Positions 1,651 through 13,790 of a stretch of 64,000 bases of DNA are shown here, in pieces. The notes under the pieces are model-generated. The model was not told the DNA's origin and searched no databases. It was given only the letters and a program-made list of their open reading frames with translations. The stretch is from assembly GCA_021735655.1 (NCBI GenBank), contig JAIPGM010000002.1, forward strand, positions 258,747 to 322,746, in the 5' to 3' direction. The stretch comes from Candidatus Omnitrophota bacterium. GTDB taxonomy: Bacteria; Omnitrophota; Gorgyraeia; Duberdicusellales; 4484-171. How positions within the stretch are numbered: position 1 is the first letter of the stretch; the number at the start of each line of letters is the position of its first letter. The translations under genes were made by a program, and so were the position numbers.

Positions 1651-1840
1651 AAAAAAACCGACAAGGGCTTCACGGTGTGTCTACCGGCAACTCAGCCACC
1701 ATCATAGTCTAAGGCTCATACTCGCAAAGTTGGGGAGCGTTGCGTTTTAGGAGAGCTTGCGAATCATCTCGCCCAAGAACTATCTTAGGTCTGTCAGTTT
1801 TGCGCCCCTTACTTTCGTAAGGTTTGCCCTTATCGGCACC
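1651..1840 (-). promoter_or_regulatory. c-di-GMP-I (GEMM-I)-like riboswitch/leader RNA ending in a U7 tract
   Basis: Minus-strand RNA GCCGAUAAGGGCAAACCUUACGAAAGUAAGGGGCGCAAAACUGACAGACCUAAG... matches the remembered Vc2 aptamer core. The match covers GGGC-AAA, a 6-bp stem capped by a GAAA tetraloop, the G.CGCAAA junction and the CCUAAG receptor half. The 3' end GCCCUUGUCGG+U7 (1668..1651) pairs with the 5' CCGAUAAGGGC (1836..1826). Confidence 0.55.
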
Positions 1841-2981: not shown

Positions 2982-4175
2982 TTAATTTTCCGAAATCGAA
3001 TACCGAACTTTAGATTTTTGTATTTCCAAAGTGCTAGCCAGTTCGGTTTCAGTTACAAACCCGAGTTCTTTTAAAATTTCTCCAAGCATAATTCCTCTTT
3101 TCCAATGAATTAAAAGAGCTTCATCGAGCTGATTTTGAGAAATTGCCTTTCGTTCAATTAATATCTGACCTAAAGGTTTATCATTGGTTGTCTTTCGATG
3201 ATAGATTTCCGGTGTTGCGTCTTTATTTGTTTTGGTGTCACGACGATCAACCATAAATTTGCTCTCAGGGATAGTTTTGAGGTAACGCTTTATTTCGGTA
3301 ACTTTTTCATTAAGCTGAATCATATTTTCGATACCAGAAGTGTACTCTCGATTGACTACGGCAATCGAAATTGTCATCAAAGGTGTATTTGTTAATTTAC
3401 GAGTTCGATCGCGATTAACCACAAAACCTTGGTTGCGATCTATTTCAGAGTAATGAAAAGGAATAATCGTATCGAAACTTTTAATAAAATTGTGGCATAT
3501 TTGTGCGTATTTATCCATGGTGCTGATAAAAACAAAATCATCTCCTCCAATATGACCGATAAAATCATCAGAATTTCCGAATTTTTTTACCGCGTCAATT
3601 AACAAGTGAGTTGTATGAAGAATTACTCCGTCACCTTTACGGTAGCCATAGACATCATTGAAAGATTTAAAATTATCAATATCTAAATAAGCAAATGAAA
3701 ATGGTTTTCCAGTTTTAAACTTTTCATTTAAGGCATCCTCAAATATTTTAGCACCAGGAAGACCAGTTAAGGAACTCGCATAAATACTGTGTTGGGCGCG
3801 TCTTGCAGCCATTTCAATTCGAATACGTAAATCAAGCGGGTCTGGTGGTTTTATCAAATAATCATCGACTCCTTGCTTTAGACTTAATAATTGAGCGCGT
3901 AATTGCCGCTTATTGATTAAAGTTATGACCGGAGTAAAAGCAGTGGCAAAATTTTCTTTTAAAAGCCGACACATGGCTAATTGTTCTTTACGGGCTGATT
4001 GAATATCAATGACTATGACATCAGGGGAAATTCTTTTTATTTTTTCGATATCTTGCGGTTGAGTAAATTCACGTAGGAAAACTTCGTATCCCCAACCGTC
4101 AAAACAAAAGCGCAGAACCTCTTTTAATTGACTATCCGAAGAGATAATTAAAATTTTATGTATAGTATCAATCAT
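2982..4175 (-). CDS. Response regulator receiver - GGDEF-type diguanylate cyclase (GGDDF variant) - C-terminal MshEN-like domain
   Basis: REC domain (ILIISSD...DVIVIDI...PVITLI...DDYLIKP). GGDEF domain (LTGLPG, YLDIDNFKSFNDVYGYRKGDGVI, IGGDDFVF). C-terminal tandem LGxxLxxxxxxxxxxLxxAL motifs (PLGQILIERKAISQNQLDEALLIH / MLGEILKELGFVTETELASTLEIQ) as in T2SSE_N/MshEN c-di-GMP-binding domains. Confidence 0.85.
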   Translation of the reverse strand: MIDTIHKILIISSDSQLKEVLRFCFDGWGYEVFLREFTQPQDIEKIKRISPDVIVIDIQSARKEQLAMCRLLKENFATAFTPVITLINKRQLRAQLLSLKQGVDDYLIKPPDPLDLRIRIEMAARRAQHSIYASSLTGLPGAKIFEDALNEKFKTGKPFSFAYLDIDNFKSFNDVYGYRKGDGVILHTTHLLIDAVKKFGNSDDFIGHIGGDDFVFISTMDKYAQICHNFIKSFDTIIPFHYSEIDRNQGFVVNRDRTRKLTNTPLMTISIAVVNREYTSGIENMIQLNEKVTEIKRYLKTIPESKFMVDRRDTKTNKDATPEIYHRKTTNDKPLGQILIERKAISQNQLDEALLIHWKRGIMLGEILKELGFVTETELASTLEIQKSKVRYSISEN

Positions 4176-4183
4176 TTAAACTA

Positions 4184-7100
4184 TTATACCACTTTCTTCT
4201 GTTCCTCAATTATTTTTTGGGCTATTTCCTTTGGTACCTGGGTGTACTTTTTAAAATGCATTGAGCAACTTGCCCGGCCACTAGATAAAGACCTAAGATT
4301 GGTTACGTAACCAAACATTTCCGAAAGTGGAGCCTCAGCCGAAATTAGCTTTTGGTTACCTTTTGAATCCATACCTAAAATTTTCCCCCGACGCGCACAA
4401 AGATAACCAACAATACCACTAGTATGCTCTTCTGGAGTAAGTACTTCCAAGCTCATGCAAGGCTCAAGAAGAACCGGACTCGCTTTTAAAAAAGCGTTTT
4501 TAAAGCAAGTTCTTGCAGCAATTTTAAACGCTAACTCTGAAGAATCAACTTCATGGTATGAACCATCAACGAGCTTTACCTTAACATCGACCACCGGATA
4601 ACCGGCATAAGAACCTTTTTTCATTGCTTCAATAATACCTTTCTCAACTGCCGGTATATAGTTTTTAGGTATTGCTCCACCTTTAATGCTATCTTTAAAT
4701 TCAAAACCAGCAGCTTCTTCATTAGGAGAAAGCTCAATCGCTACGTGGCCGTATTGGCCTCTGCCTCCGCTTTGCTTAGCATGTTTATACTCTTCGCTAG
4801 TAGACTGAAGGATTGTTTCTTTATAGGCAACTTTAGGCTGACCGGCCTGCGCTGAAACCTTAAATTCTTCCTTCAAACGTTCAACGATTATTTCAAGATG
4901 TAATTCTCCCATACCAGAAAGAATTGTTTCAGAGGTTTCCTCGTCGGTATGAGCGTTAAAAGTGGGGTCTTCTTCTGCTAGTTTAGCTAAACCCTTGGCC
5001 ATCCTATCCTGATCGGAACGACTCTCCGGTTTTATGCTGATTGAAACGACTGGCTCAGAAAATTCAATTGACTCAAGTAATATTGGATTTTGAATGTCAG
5101 AGAGTGTATCGCCGGTTAAAGTGGAACTGAGACCGACAATTGCCGCAATATCACCGGCAAACACTGCGTCAACATTTTCTCGTTGGTTAGCATGCATTCG
5201 AACAATTCTCCCGATACGCTCTTTTTTATTTTTAGTTGCATTTAAAACATAAGTTCCGGCCCTTAAGCATCCCGAATAGATTCGAGCATAGATCAATTTA
5301 CCTACATGCTGGTCAGCTTGGACCTTAAAAGCAAGCGCTGAAAAAAATTCATCATCTTGAGGCTTACGTTCCAAGCTTTTTTCTTTATCATCGGGGTCAG
5401 AACCAATAACTGGCGGAATTTCAGCCGGAGAAGGTAGATAGGCAACAACTGCATCAAGCAAGTCTTGAACACCCTTATTTTTTAATGCTGACCCGCAAAA
5501 AACCGGAACAATCTTATTTGAAACTGTAGCTTTGCGCAAAGCCTCAGTCAGATCGTCTTTGCTGATTGACTCCTCTGACTGTAAGTATTTTTCCATTAAT
5601 TTACCATCATAAGAGGCTACCCGATCAACCAAACTATGGCGGTATCTTTGAGCGATTTCTTTATAGCTTTCATGAATATCTTCCGACCTAATATCTTTGC
5701 CTAAGGATTCGTCATTATAAAGATGCATTTTCATATTAATAAGATCAATTATGCCTTTAAAGTCACCTTCCTTACCGATCGGTATCTGTAAGGCAACTGG
5801 TTTAGCCCCAATAGTATTTTCGATCTCTTCTAAAACCTTAAAAAAATCAGCCCCGACCCGATCCATTTTATTTATAAAGGCTATCTTCGGTACATGATAT
5901 TTATCCGATTGGCGCCATACGGTTTCAGTTTGAGACTCTACTCCTCCCACCGCACAAAATACAGCAACTGCCCCATCTAGGACCCTTAACGATCTTTCAA
6001 CTTCAGCGGTAAAATCAACGTGGCCGGGGGTATCAATAATAGTAATTTGGCAATCTTTCCAACTACAAGTGGTTGCAGCTGAAGTTATAGTTATACCTCT
6101 TTCCTGTTCTTGTTTCATCCAATCCATCTGAGCTGCCCCGTCATGAACTTCGCCGATTTTGTGCGACCGGCCGGTATAGAAAAGAACTCTTTCAGTAAGA
6201 GTAGTTTTCCCAGCATCAATATGGGCCATAATCCCAATATTACGGATCTTGCCCAGTTCTATTTTTCTCTCCGGCAGTGGCTCCTCTACTTTTTTTACTG
6301 CTTCAGGCTTAGGCTCGGCTTGTATTTCTGGTTCTTGAGCCGATAGCTCCGGAGTCACTTCTTCACTTGCGGTTTCAGGTTGCCCTTGGGTCAAATCTTT
6401 AGTTTCACCTTCCTGCCCTTGGATTAAAGATTCGTCTTCCTTTAGCGATTCTTTATCTGAAGGTAACTCTTCAAATTCCTTAGTTTCTGAAATAGGTTCA
6501 CTTGGCTGCGCCTGAACTAACTCATTCTCAAGATTGGAAGATTCTTTTTGAGAATCACCGTCCTCAATTAAAAGAATATCTGCTAACTCATCGTCCTTAA
6601 TAACGCCGCTTCGTTTAATCTCGCGTAATTTATTAAGAATACGAATCCGCTCCTGATCAATTTTTTCGATATCTTTACCTTTTAGCTCCAACTCCTTAGA
6701 TTTAATCTCTAACTCATTTTTTAATTCTTCACTTTGTTCTTCTAAAAGAGAGTACTCTTCTTTAGATACCCATTCGCTTTGACGTTGTTTTTCTTTCATT
6801 TGAGCAACTTCAGCAGCATGTGCGACAGTTTCTTTAGATAGCTGGTGCATTCTTTGAGTCTGATCTTTTAGCTCACTTTCCAAAGAAATAATCTTATCTT
6901 TCAATTGATTGATATTGACTTCACGAATTTTGATTACTTCTTCAGCTTGATCAAGTTCTTTTTTAAACTGCACACTCCGGGAAAACTCTTTCTCTAAATC
7001 CTTTTCCTTAGTAATCAATTTAACTCTCAAAGCCTCATAGGGACCTTTTCCTTTTTTCAAAGTAAGCTGCTGACTATTAAGCCATTTTTTATTGCGGTTA

Positions 7101-7393
7101 ATTTCCTCGCCCAATTCTTTAGCCTTGAGGCTAAGCTTTTGATGCTCATCTTGCAAGCTGAGATACTCAGCCTGAGTTTTTGTTAAGGCGACAATTTCAT
7201 TTTTTAATTTTGTTAGTTCCCTTTTTGAAGATTTAAGGTTTTCTGACAAGGCAGAAATTTTTTGTTGTTGCAAGTCAGGCTTAAGGCCAAACTTTGTACC
7301 CAGAGTACCTTTTAAAACTGAATCATCTTCGTTGTTAACTAAATACAGTACTAGGGCAATCGATACTCCAATTACAACAAAAATTAAAGTCAT
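4184..7393 (-). CDS. Elongation factor G paralog fused to an N-terminal TM anchor, coiled coil and acidic linker (1069 aa)
   Basis: Residues ~375-1069 are a complete EF-G ([31 protein letters not shown], domain [12 protein letters not shown]). Residues 1-21 are hydrophobic ([21 protein letters not shown]). Residues ~40-265 are heptad-like and K/E/L/Q-rich. Residues ~270-375 are an E/P/Q-rich linker. It is one uninterrupted ORF. Confidence 0.9.
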
Positions 7394-9176: not shown

Positions 9177-9896
9177 CTATTCCTGTGCCGAATGAGTTGT
9201 ATGTTTTTCAACAAAAAGTACTATTTTTTCTTGAATTTCAGGATTTATGTCATTAAATTCAAGCCCCATACCGGGAAAATCTTCCGGCTGTATCTCTTGG
9301 TCAGAAATCCAGACTATTTTAGCATCAACTTCAAGTGTACCTGGTTCAGGAATTAGGTGTATTCGAGTATGTAATAAATCACCCATTGAAAATAATTTTT
9401 GGGCAGCTACAAAAACTCCATCCCCGCTTAAATTGATAATTTTTCCGCTATAGAACTCATCTTGACTAGAAAACTTCTGTCGGTATTCAATACTGGAGTT
9501 AAACGGTATTCGTTTAAAGCGTCGACGAAACTGACTGTCTGATGACTCAATGATATTCTTTTCTTCCTTAATCTTCTTTATCGCATGATCTTCGGTAACA
9601 TGATATTCAAAGATTCGATCTAAACCTACGATTGAAAATAATTTCATTACATGGGAGGGAACATTGCATAGCTTCATTGCTCCCTGATGATTCGATACAT
9701 TTTTATAAATTACGGCAATAAGTGATATGCCTACATAATCAATTAAATTAACACCTTCAAAATTACAAATGACGTTCTTGGATTTATTACTAAGAACCCA
9801 GCCAACAGTTTCAACAAAATTAGAGGCATTGATATCAATATTCCCTTCTAGGTCCAAAATGGCCATGCCCTCTTTTTCACGAATATCTATCTTCAT
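9177..9896 (-). CDS. STAS (anti-sigma-factor antagonist) - PilZ fusion protein
   Basis: The N-terminal ~110 aa is a STAS/SpoIIAA-like fold (MAILDLEGNIDINAS...NLIDYVGISLI...KLCNVPSHVMKLFSIVGLDRIF). The C-terminal PilZ domain has both c-di-GMP motifs, RRxxxR (RRRFKR) and (D/N)xSxxG (NLSGDG). Confidence 0.85.
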   Translation of the reverse strand: MKIDIREKEGMAILDLEGNIDINASNFVETVGWVLSNKSKNVICNFEGVNLIDYVGISLIAVIYKNVSNHQGAMKLCNVPSHVMKLFSIVGLDRIFEYHVTEDHAIKKIKEEKNIIESSDSQFRRRFKRIPFNSSIEYRQKFSSQDEFYSGKIINLSGDGVFVAAQKLFSMGDLLHTRIHLIPEPGTLEVDAKIVWISDQEIQPEDFPGMGLEFNDINPEIQEKIVLFVEKHTTHSAQE

Positions 9897-10679: not shown

Positions 10680-11375
10680 TTAACCCTTTAAAAGAAGATA
10701 AAGCAAAGCGCCAAAAATAATTATACCAATAGCCAGTATGGTATATTCAAGAATCCCTGCCTTGCTTTTATTAAGTGGGATATCATCTAACACAAATTCC
10801 TCTTCAGGTTCGCTAACCGGTGTTTTTTTCGGCTCTGGCTCCGGTTCTGGTTCTGGCTCGGGAAGAATTTCCTCTTTTTCTGGTTCGGCCAAAGTTTCAG
10901 CGGGAACTGGCTCAATATTTTCGGAAGGCTTTCCTTGATTAGACTCTGGTTCCAAAGAAGCCAAGGCCTCTTCGGTTTTTTCAGGAACAATTTCAGTTAT
11001 CTCCTCAGAAACAACTGGCGTTTCTTTAATTTCTGGCTCTGGTTCTATAGCTGGTATCTCTGAAGAAATATCAGCTGCACCAGGCACATATTCCATATCC
11101 TCTCTTGGCTCAACCGGCAAAGCCGGTTCAGGAGCTAACTCTGGTTGAATCTCTGGAACTTCTTTTTCAACTGAAGGTGTTATTACTGGCTCTGGCTGAG
11201 CTTCTTCTGATTTTACCGATTCTTCGTCAATAGCCAACTTATCCATGAGTTCGCCTAAAGTACTCCGACAATCATGGCAAACACAAAGATGCTCTTCAAC
11301 ATTTTTTATTTCATCTTCATTCGCAGTGTGATTAAAATATTTAGGAATTATAATTTTAATTTCTTCGCAGTCCAT
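10680..11375 (-). CDS. zf-HC2 anti-sigma-factor-like protein with a P/E-rich repeat region and C-terminal TM helix
   Basis: The N-terminus has H-x3-C-x2-C (EEHLCVCHDCRSTL). A long PE-rich low-complexity stretch includes (PE)n. The C-terminal hydrophobic helix is ILAIGIIIFGALLYLLL. Confidence 0.7.
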   Translation of the reverse strand: MDCEEIKIIIPKYFNHTANEDEIKNVEEHLCVCHDCRSTLGELMDKLAIDEESVKSEEAQPEPVITPSVEKEVPEIQPELAPEPALPVEPREDMEYVPGAADISSEIPAIEPEPEIKETPVVSEEITEIVPEKTEEALASLEPESNQGKPSENIEPVPAETLAEPEKEEILPEPEPEPEPEPKKTPVSEPEEEFVLDDIPLNKSKAGILEYTILAIGIIIFGALLYLLLKG

Positions 11376-11484: not shown

Positions 11485-13455
11485 CTAAAAGCTTACTTTA
11501 CAACCGGCAAAGAAGTTTCTTTCTGGAGAAGGATAAAGTCCTCGCGTGGTACCGGTAAGATTAGTTGCAGCGTACTCACTGTAAAGTTCGTTAAATAAAT
11601 TATTAACACCGGCAAAAAGCTCTAACTTTTTTCCGGTATAACTTAATTTTATATTAGTTGTGTTGTAACTTTTTAACTTAGGGCTGATATTATTAAGATC
11701 ATTAATTAAATAAACTTTATCTCGATAAAGATAATCAGCAAAAAATGAAAAGCGTTCAAAAAAATCATATTTTACCGAAGCTGTAAGCATAGCCTTAGGA
11801 ACGAAAGGAACTTCCTTTCCAGCGTAAACACCGCCACGGAATTTCGCATCGATAAAGCGATAGCCGAGAGTAAACTTTGTATTGTCAAATGGGGTAAGGG
11901 TTGTAGTGAGATTCGCACCTTGACGACGAATTTTACTATAATTTTCGTTAGCGAACGTCCCTGGGTTGTAGTATATTTCGTTATTAACATTCATTTGAAA
12001 ATAATCCAAAGATGTGGTTAAAAAGTCAGTTAAACGCATATTGGCCCCCAAACTTATAGTTTTAGAACGTTGTGGTTTTAAATTTGTATTAATTGCTGCA
12101 GCCGGCCAAGTAACTAAGTATTCATCGGTCTTACCGACCCTCAAACCTCGCGAAAAATTAAGATAAATATTACTTTCGTTATCGATTTTATAGTTAAGTC
12201 CAGTTTCATACAAGCCTTCTCGAAAATTCAATCCATCATCAGTGCTTGTAGAACCAAAATAATCAAAAGTAAACTTTTCTTTTTGCACCCTAGCCCCTAA
12301 ATGCCCAGCAAGTTTTTCATTAAAGCTAATTTCATCCTGTAAAAACCAAGCTAGGCTCTGTCGATCAATGTCAGTAGCCGCGCTTGAGGTATCAGCTGAT
12401 AAATCCGAACTATAAAATTCAAATCCGGCAATTAGCTCTTGTTGAATTCCTCTAGTATCAAAAGACAATAATAGTTGTGGCCGCGCTTGAAAATTAGTTA
12501 TATGTTTGTCAGTAGACATGCTATAAGAAAGTAAATCCTCCAACTCATTTCGGTTACGATAAAATAAATCAACTGAAGCAATCAGCTCAGGTGAAAACTC
12601 GTTTTTAATAGTTAAGCCTAAAGTATTATCCTCTCGTTGATAGTTATTTAAAGGAGTTGTTGAGTCACGACGTGAAGTTCCAGCTAACCGTTCAGCTTCG
12701 GTTATATCATCTGGCAATCCATAGATATATTCGTGATGAGTCAAGTCAGCACTTATCTCTAACTGTTCGGTAGGCCTAGAGTTTAGTTCTATTGAGCTGT
12801 ATTTTGAGCGGTAATGACTATTTTGACGATAACCACTTGTTGAATGGTACTCAGAAAATGTGCGAAACGATAAAAGGTCTTCTCCACCTGAGGCTGAAAT
12901 AGACTCTTTGGTCGAGCGGTAACTTCCGGCTTCAAAGTTAACTTCAACTGAAAGATCCTTAGCTTGAGGATCTTTTGAAATAATATTAACTATTCCTCCG
13001 GCAGCACCCTCTCCATACAGGACAACTCCGCCACCCCGGATTACTTCTATTCGTTCAACATTTTTTAAGGGCAACTCAGTCCAGTTAACTCCGCTCATAT
13101 CGATTTCATTAATTTTTCGACCATTCACTAAAACCAGCATGTTTGATGCAGCATTATCACCAAAACCCATCATATCAACAGTTGTCTTAACGTTAGTTCC
13201 GTAATAATCGCTGACGTGTAACGACGGAACATTTCTTAAGAAATCAATTACTGTGCTTGATCCGCTAGCCTTGATATGTTTCTCGGTATATACTTTGGTC
13301 GCATAAGGAGTTTCAGAAATTGTTGTTTCTTCTACTCCGGCATAAGGAGTTACTACTATTTGCTCTAAATCTATTTGTCCTTGCGCCAACAAAGGACTTA
13401 ATGATCCAAATTGAATAGTCAAAAATAATATTAAAAATACAAAACACCTTTTCAT
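11485..13455 (-). CDS. TonB-dependent outer-membrane receptor (BtuB-like, under cobalamin riboswitch control)
   Basis: Signal peptide, then a plug domain (VVTPY...; IEVIRGGGVVLYGEGAAGGIVNII), a long beta-barrel and a C-terminal aromatic residue (KVSF). Start moved to the ATG at 13455 (MKRCFVFLIL), which follows an AAAGGAGGGGG Shine-Dalgarno sequence. The tracked 5' extension overlaps a terminator hairpin. Confidence 0.85.
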   Translation of the reverse strand: MKRCFVFLILFLTIQFGSLSPLLAQGQIDLEQIVVTPYAGVEETTISETPYATKVYTEKHIKASGSSTVIDFLRNVPSLHVSDYYGTNVKTTVDMMGFGDNAASNMLVLVNGRKINEIDMSGVNWTELPLKNVERIEVIRGGGVVLYGEGAAGGIVNIISKDPQAKDLSVEVNFEAGSYRSTKESISASGGEDLLSFRTFSEYHSTSGYRQNSHYRSKYSSIELNSRPTEQLEISADLTHHEYIYGLPDDITEAERLAGTSRRDSTTPLNNYQREDNTLGLTIKNEFSPELIASVDLFYRNRNELEDLLSYSMSTDKHITNFQARPQLLLSFDTRGIQQELIAGFEFYSSDLSADTSSAATDIDRQSLAWFLQDEISFNEKLAGHLGARVQKEKFTFDYFGSTSTDDGLNFREGLYETGLNYKIDNESNIYLNFSRGLRVGKTDEYLVTWPAAAINTNLKPQRSKTISLGANMRLTDFLTTSLDYFQMNVNNEIYYNPGTFANENYSKIRRQGANLTTTLTPFDNTKFTLGYRFIDAKFRGGVYAGKEVPFVPKAMLTASVKYDFFERFSFFADYLYRDKVYLINDLNNISPKLKSYNTTNIKLSYTGKKLELFAGVNNLFNELYSEYAATNLTGTTRGLYPSPERNFFAGCKVSF

Positions 13456-13487
13456 ACTACCCCCTCCTTTAAAACTAATCTTAAAAT

Positions 13488-13516
13488 AAAAAAACCCTAT
13501 ACCTTCTGGTATAGGG
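13488..13516 (-). terminator. Intrinsic terminator/attenuator hairpin just upstream of the receptor RBS
   Basis: Minus strand CCCUAUACC-AGAA-GGUAUAGGG (a 9-bp perfect stem) followed by U7. Confidence 0.6.
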
Positions 13517-13544
13517 TGCACCCTGATTTACTTGGCCCTAAAAT

Positions 13545-13790
13545 AAAAAAATTCAGGTAATGTTTCCACGCAAAACCTAAACTTTGCTTCTTACGGCAGG
13601 TCTTCTGACTTCCCTACATCTTTTAGCTACCTTCCCACCTGCATTTTAAAACAGATAGTGGTTTAAATCGCTAAAAGGGCCCTAAAATTATCTCTAGGGG
13701 TCGGGATCACAGCACCGGGAGTGTCTCCGATTCTCACGGAGTTCCCTATTAAGCTCCTTTTGAGCACCGTAAAATTAGCTACTTTTATAC
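13545..13790 (-). promoter_or_regulatory. Cobalamin (B12) riboswitch with terminator expression platform
   Basis: The minus-strand RNA contains GGUGCUCAAAAGGAGCUUAAUAGGGAACUCCGUGAGAAUCGGAG...GCUGU and a B12-box-like ACCACUAUCUG...GCAGGUGGGAAGGUAGC. It ends in the hairpin UUUAGGU...ACCUGAA (13581..13552) followed by U7 (13551..13545). Confidence 0.8.

Follow-up and report, generated by a model that had tools for sequence, protein, structure and literature searches.

According to the textbooks, diguanylate cyclases keep their output in check by product inhibition at the RxxD I-site. How the output of a cyclase without this site might be set is the question raised by one gene of a Candidatus Omnitrophota bacterium, which lies on the minus strand of the 64,000-nucleotide stretch of contig JAIPGM010000002.1 analyzed here (the window). 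Read from the letters alone, its product had been predicted to join a receiver (REC), a GGDEF domain with a GGDDF signature and no I-site, and a C-terminal MshEN domain, a receptor-type domain for cyclic di-GMP (c-di-GMP). Positions 2982 to 4175 indeed delimit one open reading frame (ORF) of 397 amino acids (aa), and all quoted strings were found in its minus-strand translation; the plus-strand frame of the same segment is riddled with stops. A 100% identical protein, from a metagenome-assembled genome (MAG) of Candidatus Omnitrophica, is already annotated as a diguanylate cyclase. Judging from its sequence, we regard this gene product as a widespread Omnitrophota signaling protein that combines a variant c-di-GMP-making domain with a small module predicted to bind c-di-GMP. 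Our favored reading, that of an active cyclase restrained by its own product through this C-terminal module (feedback inhibition), falls somewhat short of an even chance.

We started from the central domain, whose assignment to the GGDEF family stood. Pfam GGDEF (PF00990) matched with 51.8 bits (gathering score, 23.8; E, 1e-13) and NCBIfam TIGR00254 with 50.9 bits (cut-off, 37.4). Both matches covered only the first half of the profile, in the case of Pfam positions 5 to 90 of 161. Isolated GGDEF structures (3ign, 5euh, and 4zvf) superposed on the model over about 185 columns, with a Foldseek TMt of 0.70 to 0.80, and in the model the second half of the domain appears GGDEF-like in fold although sequence methods cannot align it. 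PAS-GGDEF-HD-GYP genes of related loci supplied canonical GGEEF domains for an hhalign comparison, which gave 99.1% probability over 148 columns.

The details read in this domain also proved correct. The strings DIDNFKSFND (aa 165 to 174) and YGYRKGD (aa 176 to 182) are present, and the Asp at the fourth position of the signature is real and is shared by nearly all of the closest homologues (Table 1). Similarly, the classical I-site is missing: the R359-A-I-D362 of PleD is replaced by NSDD (positions -9 to -6 relative to the GG), which contains no Arg. The same holds throughout the clade to which the domain belongs; in an alignment of the target with 144 clade representatives, the six most frequent residues at position 201 did not include Arg.

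The same 145 sequences revealed a strongly conserved core. Invariant or nearly invariant were D165, K170, N173, D174, H208 (145/145), G211, D212 (145/145), D213 (142/145), F214, Y242, R257 (144/145), K296, K300, S305, and R312. D165, K170, N173, and D182 align with the metal-binding D327, the transition-state K332, and the guanine-reading N335 and D344 of PleD, and K300 aligns by hhalign with the canonical phosphate-binding Lys of the A-K-x-x-G-R-N segment. Position 182, which corresponds to the base-selecting D344 of PleD, is Asp in 102 sequences, Asn in 24, and Ser in 19. The insertion that carries R257 was modeled as a beta-hairpin, with strands at 251 to 255 and 261 to 265. The domain is thus predicted to retain the core that binds substrate and metal, with remodeling at three classical positions.

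To place the signature in a wider frame, we scanned 1.84 billion representatives with aa 130 to 397 using HMMER. This returned 299 clusters (at 50% identity) with E values of 1e-30 or lower and 2,621 with 1e-10 or lower, and we take the clade to comprise at least 299 clusters. The motif "...DF[IV]GH[IV]GGDDF" was present in all but a few of the first 60 relatives listed and in 120 of the 120 matches of a second search, and these relatives are 35 to 45% identical to the target over the whole domain. Their N-terminal architectures include REC alone (about 310 aa), transmembrane (TM)/HAMP-like regions, CHASE3, HisKA, and HD-GYP fusions; among their taxonomic labels are Omnitrophota, Elusimicrobia, Chloroflexia, Geoalkalibacter, and Deltaproteobacteria. 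Invariant catalytic residues across many sensor architectures would fit the pattern of a regulated enzymatic output domain. GGDDF is therefore best seen as the signature of a large divergent GGDEF clade without RxxD and not as a peculiarity of the target. NCBIfam holds no model specific for the clade, as checked with six tail-less members and one long form (see below). Apart from Geobacter sulfurreducens GSU1937, a Hypr GGDEF protein with GGDDF and the only GGDDF enzyme reported to be active (PMC8835794), the clade as such is undescribed in the literature searched.

We then turned to the C terminus. The claim of an MshEN tail held for its N-terminal four-helix subdomain (MshEN_N) only. NCBIfam NF053729, [quoted passage not shown] matched aa 334 to 386 over its full length (positions 1 to 53 of 53) with 55.6 bits (cut-off, 38; E, 3.3e-15). 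The Pfam family named in the original prediction, PF05157 (T2SSE_N/MshEN), gave no match on the target, because it models the C-terminal subdomain (MshEN_C/T2SSE_N1), which is absent here. Indeed, the target ends 11 residues after motif 2, and in long-form relatives PF05157 aligns to about 85 residues that follow the 53-residue motif. A profile built from 28 tails matched Vibrio cholerae MshE (5HTL) at 7.1e-9, free of gaps over residues 6 to 61, and all three GSPII domains of PilF at 5.7e-17. A separate model of the tail (predicted local distance difference test [pLDDT] score, 81) adopted the four-helix-bundle fold, with a PDB match probability of 1.00. It superposed on c-di-GMP-bound MshE at 0.7 Å over 56 columns with 41% identity and on c-di-GMP-bound PilF GSPII-B (8PDK) at 0.5 to 0.6 Å over 56 to 57 columns, the root mean square deviation from these ligand-bound structures being 0.5 to 0.9 Å overall. 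The non-binding PilF GSPII-A was 4.0 Å away.

Most residues that define the MshEN motifs are kept. All Leu, Gly, and Gln positions through which MshE contacts its ligand are conserved; counted in the 120 closest homologues, and with the MshE residue named first, these are L10 (L335; 111 of 120), G11 (G336; 120), L25 (L350; 119), L29 (L354; 120), L39 (L364; 100, plus Phe in 15), G40 (G365; 120), L54 (L379; 101, plus Ile in 17), L58 (L383; 119, that is, all sequences without a gap), and Q61 (Q386; 111). Mean column entropy was 0.78 bits at motif positions versus 1.57 bits at "x" positions (Mann-Whitney P = 0.0036). Measured against the consensus (R/K/L)LGxx[LVI][LVI]xxG[LVI][LVI]xxxxLxxxLxxQ, the L, G, L, and L residues are preserved in both motifs and the Q in motif 2. 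The deviations concern position 1 of each motif (P or M[V,I]), G10 of motif 1 (K), and Q24 of motif 1 (H). In MshE numbering, both motif-initial Arg residues are replaced, R9 by an invariant P334 and R38 by V, I, or M363; furthermore, Q32 is H357 in 118 of the 120 sequences, G18 is Lys or Asn, and the spacer carries an invariant W358. Pro at position 1 occurs in the c-di-GMP binder NfrB (PMC8669469). In Thermus thermophilus PilF GSPII-B, the two Arg positions are occupied by Lys and Leu; this domain binds at 6 nM, and its affinity drops when Arg is restored (PMC11731258). [quoted passage not shown]

The N-terminal domain was confirmed as receiver-like. The model has a receiver fold, and phmmer matched PDB receivers at 1e-10 to 1e-11, but the Pfam Response_reg (PF00072) match fell slightly short of its gathering score (27.9 versus 30.2 bits), and the degeneracy of the domain had gone unremarked. 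Compared with PleD D1, the phospho-acceptor Asp (D57) and the conserved Lys (K109) are kept, S12-S13 takes the place of the acidic pair (D14 comes next), and the switch position for Thr/Ser holds I87. Within the family, D57, I87, and K109 are invariant and S12 is nearly so. Since both the Mg-binding acidic pair and the Thr/Ser switch are missing, the domain is probably a phosphorylation-independent module for dimerization or partner binding. We also observed that a segment of the receiver's first helix and second strand, FCFDGWGYEV (aa 23 to 32; window positions 4077 to 4106), hardly varies within the family. The residues L21, F23, C24, D26, G27, W28, G29, and E31 are conserved in this region, far above what is usual for that part of a receiver.

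An AlphaFold2 model of the full-length protein, computed with 75 homologues as input, reached a pLDDT of 83 and a predicted template modeling score of 0.74. Its best PDB matches in Foldseek were WspR, PleD, and DgcR. Likewise, phmmer searches against the PDB returned PleD, DgcR (6zxb, 6zxc, and 6zxm), WspR, and many receivers, as well as PilF for aa 329 to 384; both phmmer and profile alignments to PDB cyclases always ended near residue 217. Other candidates were set aside. FumaraseC_C (18.8 bits), Cas10 palm2 (13.2 bits), and DUF4388 (13.2 bits) stayed below the Pfam cut-offs, fumarase had an E value above 2 in the fold search, and we attribute all three to chance or generic helical similarity. 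A defense-system reading was rejected as well, as the PADLOC match was weak and confined to the receiver region and the neighbors are housekeeping genes.

Table 1. Features of the target gene and c-di-GMP-related elements nearby (window coordinates)
Feature	Position	Strand	Residues (aa)	Basis or remark
Whole ORF: REC-like, GGDEF (GGDDF clade), MshEN_N	2982..4175	minus	397 + stop	ORF list
Degenerate receiver (REC-like), last helix continuing into GGDEF	3792..4160	minus	6-128	Pfam, PDB, PleD D1 alignment
GGDEF-fold cyclase domain, divergent GH[IV]GGDDF clade	3234..3788	minus	130-314	Pfam, NCBIfam, fold, hhalign
NSDD at RxxD I-site position	3564..3575	minus	201-204	Counted back from GG in PleD alignment
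GGDDF signature, after invariant H208	3534..3548	minus	210-214	GGDDF in 118/120 closest homologues
Segment with ~14-residue clade-specific insertion, invariant R257	3372..3449	minus	243-268	Gap in hhalign vs canonical GGDEF
Linker, variable and basic	3177..3233	minus	315-333	Poorly conserved; mean pLDDT 58 at residues 311-320
MshEN_N-type four-helix module; MshEN_C subdomain absent	3018..3176	minus	334-386	NF053729, profile, fold
Motif 1, PLGQILIERKAISQNQLDEALLIH, 24 residues	3105-3176	minus	334-357	
Spacer, WKRGI, 5 residues	3090-3104	minus	358-362	
Motif 2, MLGEILKELGFVTETELASTLEIQ, 24 residues	3018-3089	minus	363-386	
c-di-GMP-I (GEMM-I, RF01051) riboswitch	1683..1838	minus		Rfam 60.8 bits vs gathering score 35
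STAS-PilZ fusion: anti-sigma-antagonist-type and c-di-GMP receptor domain	9177-9896	minus		Pfam STAS 54 bits, PilZ 60 bits

Among the closest known systems are the response-regulator diguanylate cyclases DgcR of Leptospira biflexa, WspR, and PleD, which share with the target a receiver, a helical linker, and one GGDEF domain; the alignment with DgcR spans residues 5 to 7 through 216 to 217. In enzymes of this type, cyclase activity depends on receiver-mediated dimerization. However, they have GG(D/E)EF, an RxxD I-site, and a phosphorylatable receiver, whereas the target has GGDDF, NSDD, and a degenerate receiver, plus the 14-residue insertion and the C-terminal MshEN_N module. NCBIfam equivalog scores were far below the cut-offs (65 versus 474 for PleD and 49.5 versus 500 for DgcR). 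With MshE, PilF GSPII-B, Escherichia coli NfrB, and Bdellovibrio Bd2402, the target shares two 24-residue motifs, a 5-residue spacer, and a four-helix bundle. Its motif start, PLGQIL, is as in NfrB, and its restriction to MshEN_N is as in Bd2402. Unlike these systems, in which MshEN sits on an ATPase or a glycosyltransferase, the target carries it at the C terminus of a cyclase, with Pro and Val/Ile/Met for Arg, His for Q32, an invariant spacer Trp, and no MshEN_C. In the literature searched, the combination of the three domains is undescribed, as the original prediction had suspected. No GGDEF-MshEN fusion was found there, and the architecture table of the paper that defined MshEN lists fusions to REC, HD-GYP, CheA, CheX, adenylate cyclase, kinase, and glycosyltransferase but none to GGDEF.

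How could these parts work together? In the favored reading of a product-restrained cyclase, the receiver-like domain and its long last helix would bring two GGDEF domains together, and the pair would condense two GTP molecules to c-di-GMP, as in a cytoplasmic Rec-GGDEF-type enzyme. The four-helix bundle of MshEN_N would bind one c-di-GMP and so act as a high-affinity sensor of the enzyme's own product. The ligand-bound tail would then restrain the cyclase in place of the absent I-site, and the cellular c-di-GMP level would be set in this way. Because the clade lacks the I-site and the receiver is probably not phosphorylatable, regulation most plausibly enters through the tail. The architecture, the motifs and how well they are conserved, the predicted folds, and the c-di-GMP-related surroundings are what the analysis shows. 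From these we infer that the protein is catalytically active and binds c-di-GMP and, most tentatively, in which direction the feedback works, as well as the role in feedback or localization that had been proposed for the tail.

Several observations weigh against this reading. The fourth residue of the signature is Asp, where Glu, the catalytic base, is normal. GGDDF does not fit the signature of active cyclases, [G/A/S]G[D/E]E[F/Y]; degenerate motifs are usually inactive, and the GGDDF-EAL protein PA3258 is without a cyclase phenotype (PMC8835794). The canonical Arg of the G-R-N segment is not conserved (E304 in the target and Gly in most clade members), and the counterpart of PleD R366 is His, so the active site is predicted to be remodeled. 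Wild-type GSU1937 and three of four chimeras made with it were inactive in E. coli (PMC8835794). In the tail, motif 1 ends in the same His as in the non-binding PilF GSPII-A, and no tested MshEN domain combines the loss of both motif-initial Arg residues with the Q32-to-His change. Furthermore, most GGDDF-clade proteins have neither an I-site nor MshEN, so that the tail does not simply replace a lost I-site one for one. Finally, the MshEN domain of NfrB activates the attached enzyme upon c-di-GMP binding, so that the feedback could be positive (PMC8669469).

This last point leads to the first alternative, namely, that the tail senses c-di-GMP and switches the cyclase on. The protein would then provide positive feedback, or a relay that amplifies the c-di-GMP of other cyclases, and would behave as a bistable switch rather than a homeostat. 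NfrB is the one enzyme-MshEN fusion that has been studied, and c-di-GMP binding to its MshEN domain activates the attached glycosyltransferase (PMC8669469). The functions of the MshE and PilF ATPases are likewise promoted by c-di-GMP (for PilF, PMC11731258), and with the receiver degenerate, c-di-GMP is the most obvious input that is left. A primary signal could come from a PAS-GGEEF-HD-GYP protein with a canonical full-length GGDEF match (125.8 bits), whose gene abuts the target homologue upstream at L024:6357-8000 and at 10 other loci, in another Omnitrophota group; there, a conventional enzyme of c-di-GMP turnover is paired with the GGDDF-MshEN_N protein. However, these are only 11 of 80 loci, and positive feedback with a nanomolar-to-micromolar sensor and no I-site would run away without a balancing phosphodiesterase. 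We consider a switch of this kind unlikely but a serious rival to feedback inhibition.

We give a similarly low standing to the possibility that the GGDDF domain is catalytically dead and serves as a receptor or scaffold for c-di-GMP, perhaps also for GTP, that signals to partners through the conserved surface of the receiver-like domain. The Glu-to-Asp change at the catalytic base, the usual inactivity of non-canonical motifs such as that of PA3258 (PMC8835794), the loss of the G-R-N Arg and of R366, and the coverage of only half of the profile by Pfam GGDEF would all be consistent with this, and the invariant FCFDGWGYEV patch suggests a dedicated partner. On the other hand, every other substrate- or metal-binding residue is invariant across many sensor architectures, which is hard to explain for a non-enzyme. 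Dead GGDEF receptors of the PelD and LapD type usually bind c-di-GMP through a retained RxxD, which the target lacks. Moreover, a GGDDF domain can be active: fused to GacA, the domain of GSU1937 made both cGAMP and c-di-GMP in E. coli, and deletion of GSU1937 lowered the activity of a cGAMP reporter (PMC8835794).

A third possibility concerns the tail, which might keep the MshEN_N fold but no longer bind c-di-GMP and act as a dimerization or docking bundle, as non-binding XpsE or PilF GSPII-A do. The substitutions at P334, V/I/M363, Q32, and G18 and the invariant spacer Trp could be read in this way. In PilF GSPII-A, His at the last position is the single deviation of motif I and comes on top of a degenerate motif II, and MshEN_C, which is missing here, contributes to affinity in PilF GSPII-B (PMC11731258). 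Nevertheless, none of the loss-of-binding substitutions of XpsE (G11V, L29R, G40L, L54H, L58C, and Q61V) occurs in the target tail, and MshEN_N alone is sufficient in Bd2402 and in MshE constructs, as reported in the MshEN-defining paper. In addition, hydrophobic residues at the Arg positions raise the affinity of PilF GSPII-B (PMC11731258), and the tail model lies nearest to the ligand-bound structures and far from GSPII-A. A non-binding tail is thus improbable in our view.

Least probable is that the clade makes a product other than c-di-GMP, with the tail placing a second nucleotide signal under c-di-GMP control: the remodeled active site (H208, D213, the R257 hairpin, and no G-R-N Arg), the Ser or Asn at base-reading position 182 of some clade members, and the cGAMP made by GSU1937 would allow it, but the target and its whole family keep N173 and D182, the guanine-reading pair of PleD, and GTP plus GTP is therefore the expected substrate pair. 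The Ser-182 members are TM proteins of about 440 aa from Desulfuromonadales/Deltaproteobacteria and resemble GSU1937 in its described architecture and taxonomy, whose own membership in the clade is unproven; cluster look-ups gave Geoalkalibacter and "Deltaproteobacteria" labels only, which is consistent with it. GSU1937 itself makes cGAMP, sits in the membrane, and has HAMP domains as well as the Hypr Ser, whereas the target is soluble, has Asp at this position, and carries MshEN_N. Taken together, we rank an active cyclase with a product-binding tail above each of the last three readings (dead receptor or scaffold, tail without ligand binding, and other nucleotide product).

We next asked how widely the protein is distributed. 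In a scan of one genome per GTDB species, relatives were found in at least 135 genomes, nearly all of them labeled Omnitrophota. Over the full length, the best 80 relatives share 55 to 81% identity with the target, and the same label is carried by most of their records. A long form of 470 to 495 aa, in which Pfam recognizes REC, GGDEF, and MshEN, accounted for 71 of the 120 best matches to one such protein, and among the matches listed every organism label attached to a long form was Omnitrophota. The long forms (e.g., MBN1794777.1, labeled "response regulator") have the same three domains in the same order, H-x-GGDDF, and the PLGQ start and are 35 to 45% identical to the target. Unlike the target, they keep MshEN_C (PF05157, 46 to 73 bits) and in most of them motif 2 begins with Arg or Lys. 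Canonical receivers (up to 110 bits in Pfam), with DD or ED and a Thr at the switch position, are found in several; in other long forms even the acceptor Asp is lost. We also noted that records titled "Methanosarcinales archaeon," "Patescibacteria group," "Deltaproteobacteria," and "uncultured Planctomycetia" carry full-length homologues with 57 to 81% identity (L009, L035, L044, and many CAZ* and CAY* records). Several of these records (e.g., L009, L001, and L003) also share the synteny of the window, and the organism labels of such MAG records are probably wrong.

Within the 64-kb window, the target is the only ORF of the GGDEF type. Only 8 nucleotides (nt) separate its start from the stop of the upstream gene, and the next gene on the same strand follows about 30 nt after it. 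No terminator-like site was found in either gap, and the target gene is therefore probably co-transcribed with both neighbors. The order of a paralogue of elongation factor G (EF-G), the target, MscS, and an M48 peptidase, with STAS-PilZ 5 kb upstream, recurs in about 20 of the 80 loci, and the neighbor annotations were borne out by Pfam. Elsewhere the neighbors differ; we thus discarded the idea of a universal operon partner, as no single one is conserved.

Other c-di-GMP components lie close by. The c-di-GMP-I riboswitch is located 1.1 kb downstream of the target on the same strand, where a gap of 290 nt separates the MscS gene from that of an M48/Ste24-like peptidase (374-1612, minus). Its aptamer has a 71-nt insertion in the P2 loop; a promoter-like site (TTGAAA-18-TATAAT; 1873 to 1844) lies just upstream and a run of seven T residues about 30 nt downstream. 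Five related loci (L001, L002, L003, L005, and L017) have the riboswitch at the same place, and compensatory changes were seen in its first hairpin. Its position points to a possible c-di-GMP-controlled membrane metalloprotease. Relatives of the STAS-PilZ protein occur within 6 kb of the target in 17 of the 80 loci; in L015 and L053, which differ in their surrounding genes, they directly follow the target, and in five more loci they lie within about 3 kb. These data show that c-di-GMP is a working signal in the host, in a neighborhood enriched in c-di-GMP parts; they do not thereby show that the target produces it.

Other genes of the window have features of their own. The EF-G paralogue directly upstream of the target (1,069 aa; 4184-7393, minus) comprises a complete EF-G (GTP_EFTU, D2, III, IV, and C), N-terminal to which lie a hydrophobic helix and a stretch of about 380 aa with coiled-coil and acidic low-complexity character. 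This arrangement occurs in about 20 Omnitrophota loci, some of which match the whole extension, and membrane tethering of such a protein would be unusual. A cobalamin riboswitch (RF00174; 81.7 bits; 13578-13786, minus) lies immediately upstream of a TonB-dependent-receptor-like ORF (11485-13521), an ordinary B12-uptake arrangement. Finally, a 231-aa protein (10680-11375, minus) starts with a Cys/His-rich segment resembling a zf-HC2 anti-sigma factor, continues with an extended repeat region rich in Pro and Glu (PEPEPEPEPEP), and has a hydrophobic helix at the C terminus; in related loci, conservation is confined to its first 60 or so residues.

What would these findings mean? The three domains and the label "diguanylate cyclase" were known already; their combination is new as far as the literature searched shows. 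If GGDDF enzymes, which carry Asp where the catalytic Glu is regarded as essential, are active, genome censuses divide GGDEF domains into "active" and "degenerate" by too narrow a definition. To such a domain, the Omnitrophota proteins add, in cis, the highest-affinity known protein receptor module for c-di-GMP, and an MshEN domain in cis on a cyclase would be a new solution to feedback control or a new way of wiring cyclases in series. As a bolder and rather doubtful conjecture, GH[IV]GGDDF proteins may form a functionally distinct, so far unrecognized branch of cyclases, with His for Arg before the GG, an Asp base, an Arg hairpin, and no I-site. In Omnitrophota, this branch would have recruited MshEN as an allosteric product sensor in the nanomolar range, giving a self-contained, phosphorylation-independent set-point device for c-di-GMP that is conserved across a phylum of ultra-small bacteria. 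Omnitrophota are uncultured, and their regulation can be approached in few ways, of which a strongly conserved, phylum-wide protein (55 to 80% identity) encoded beside a c-di-GMP riboswitch is one.

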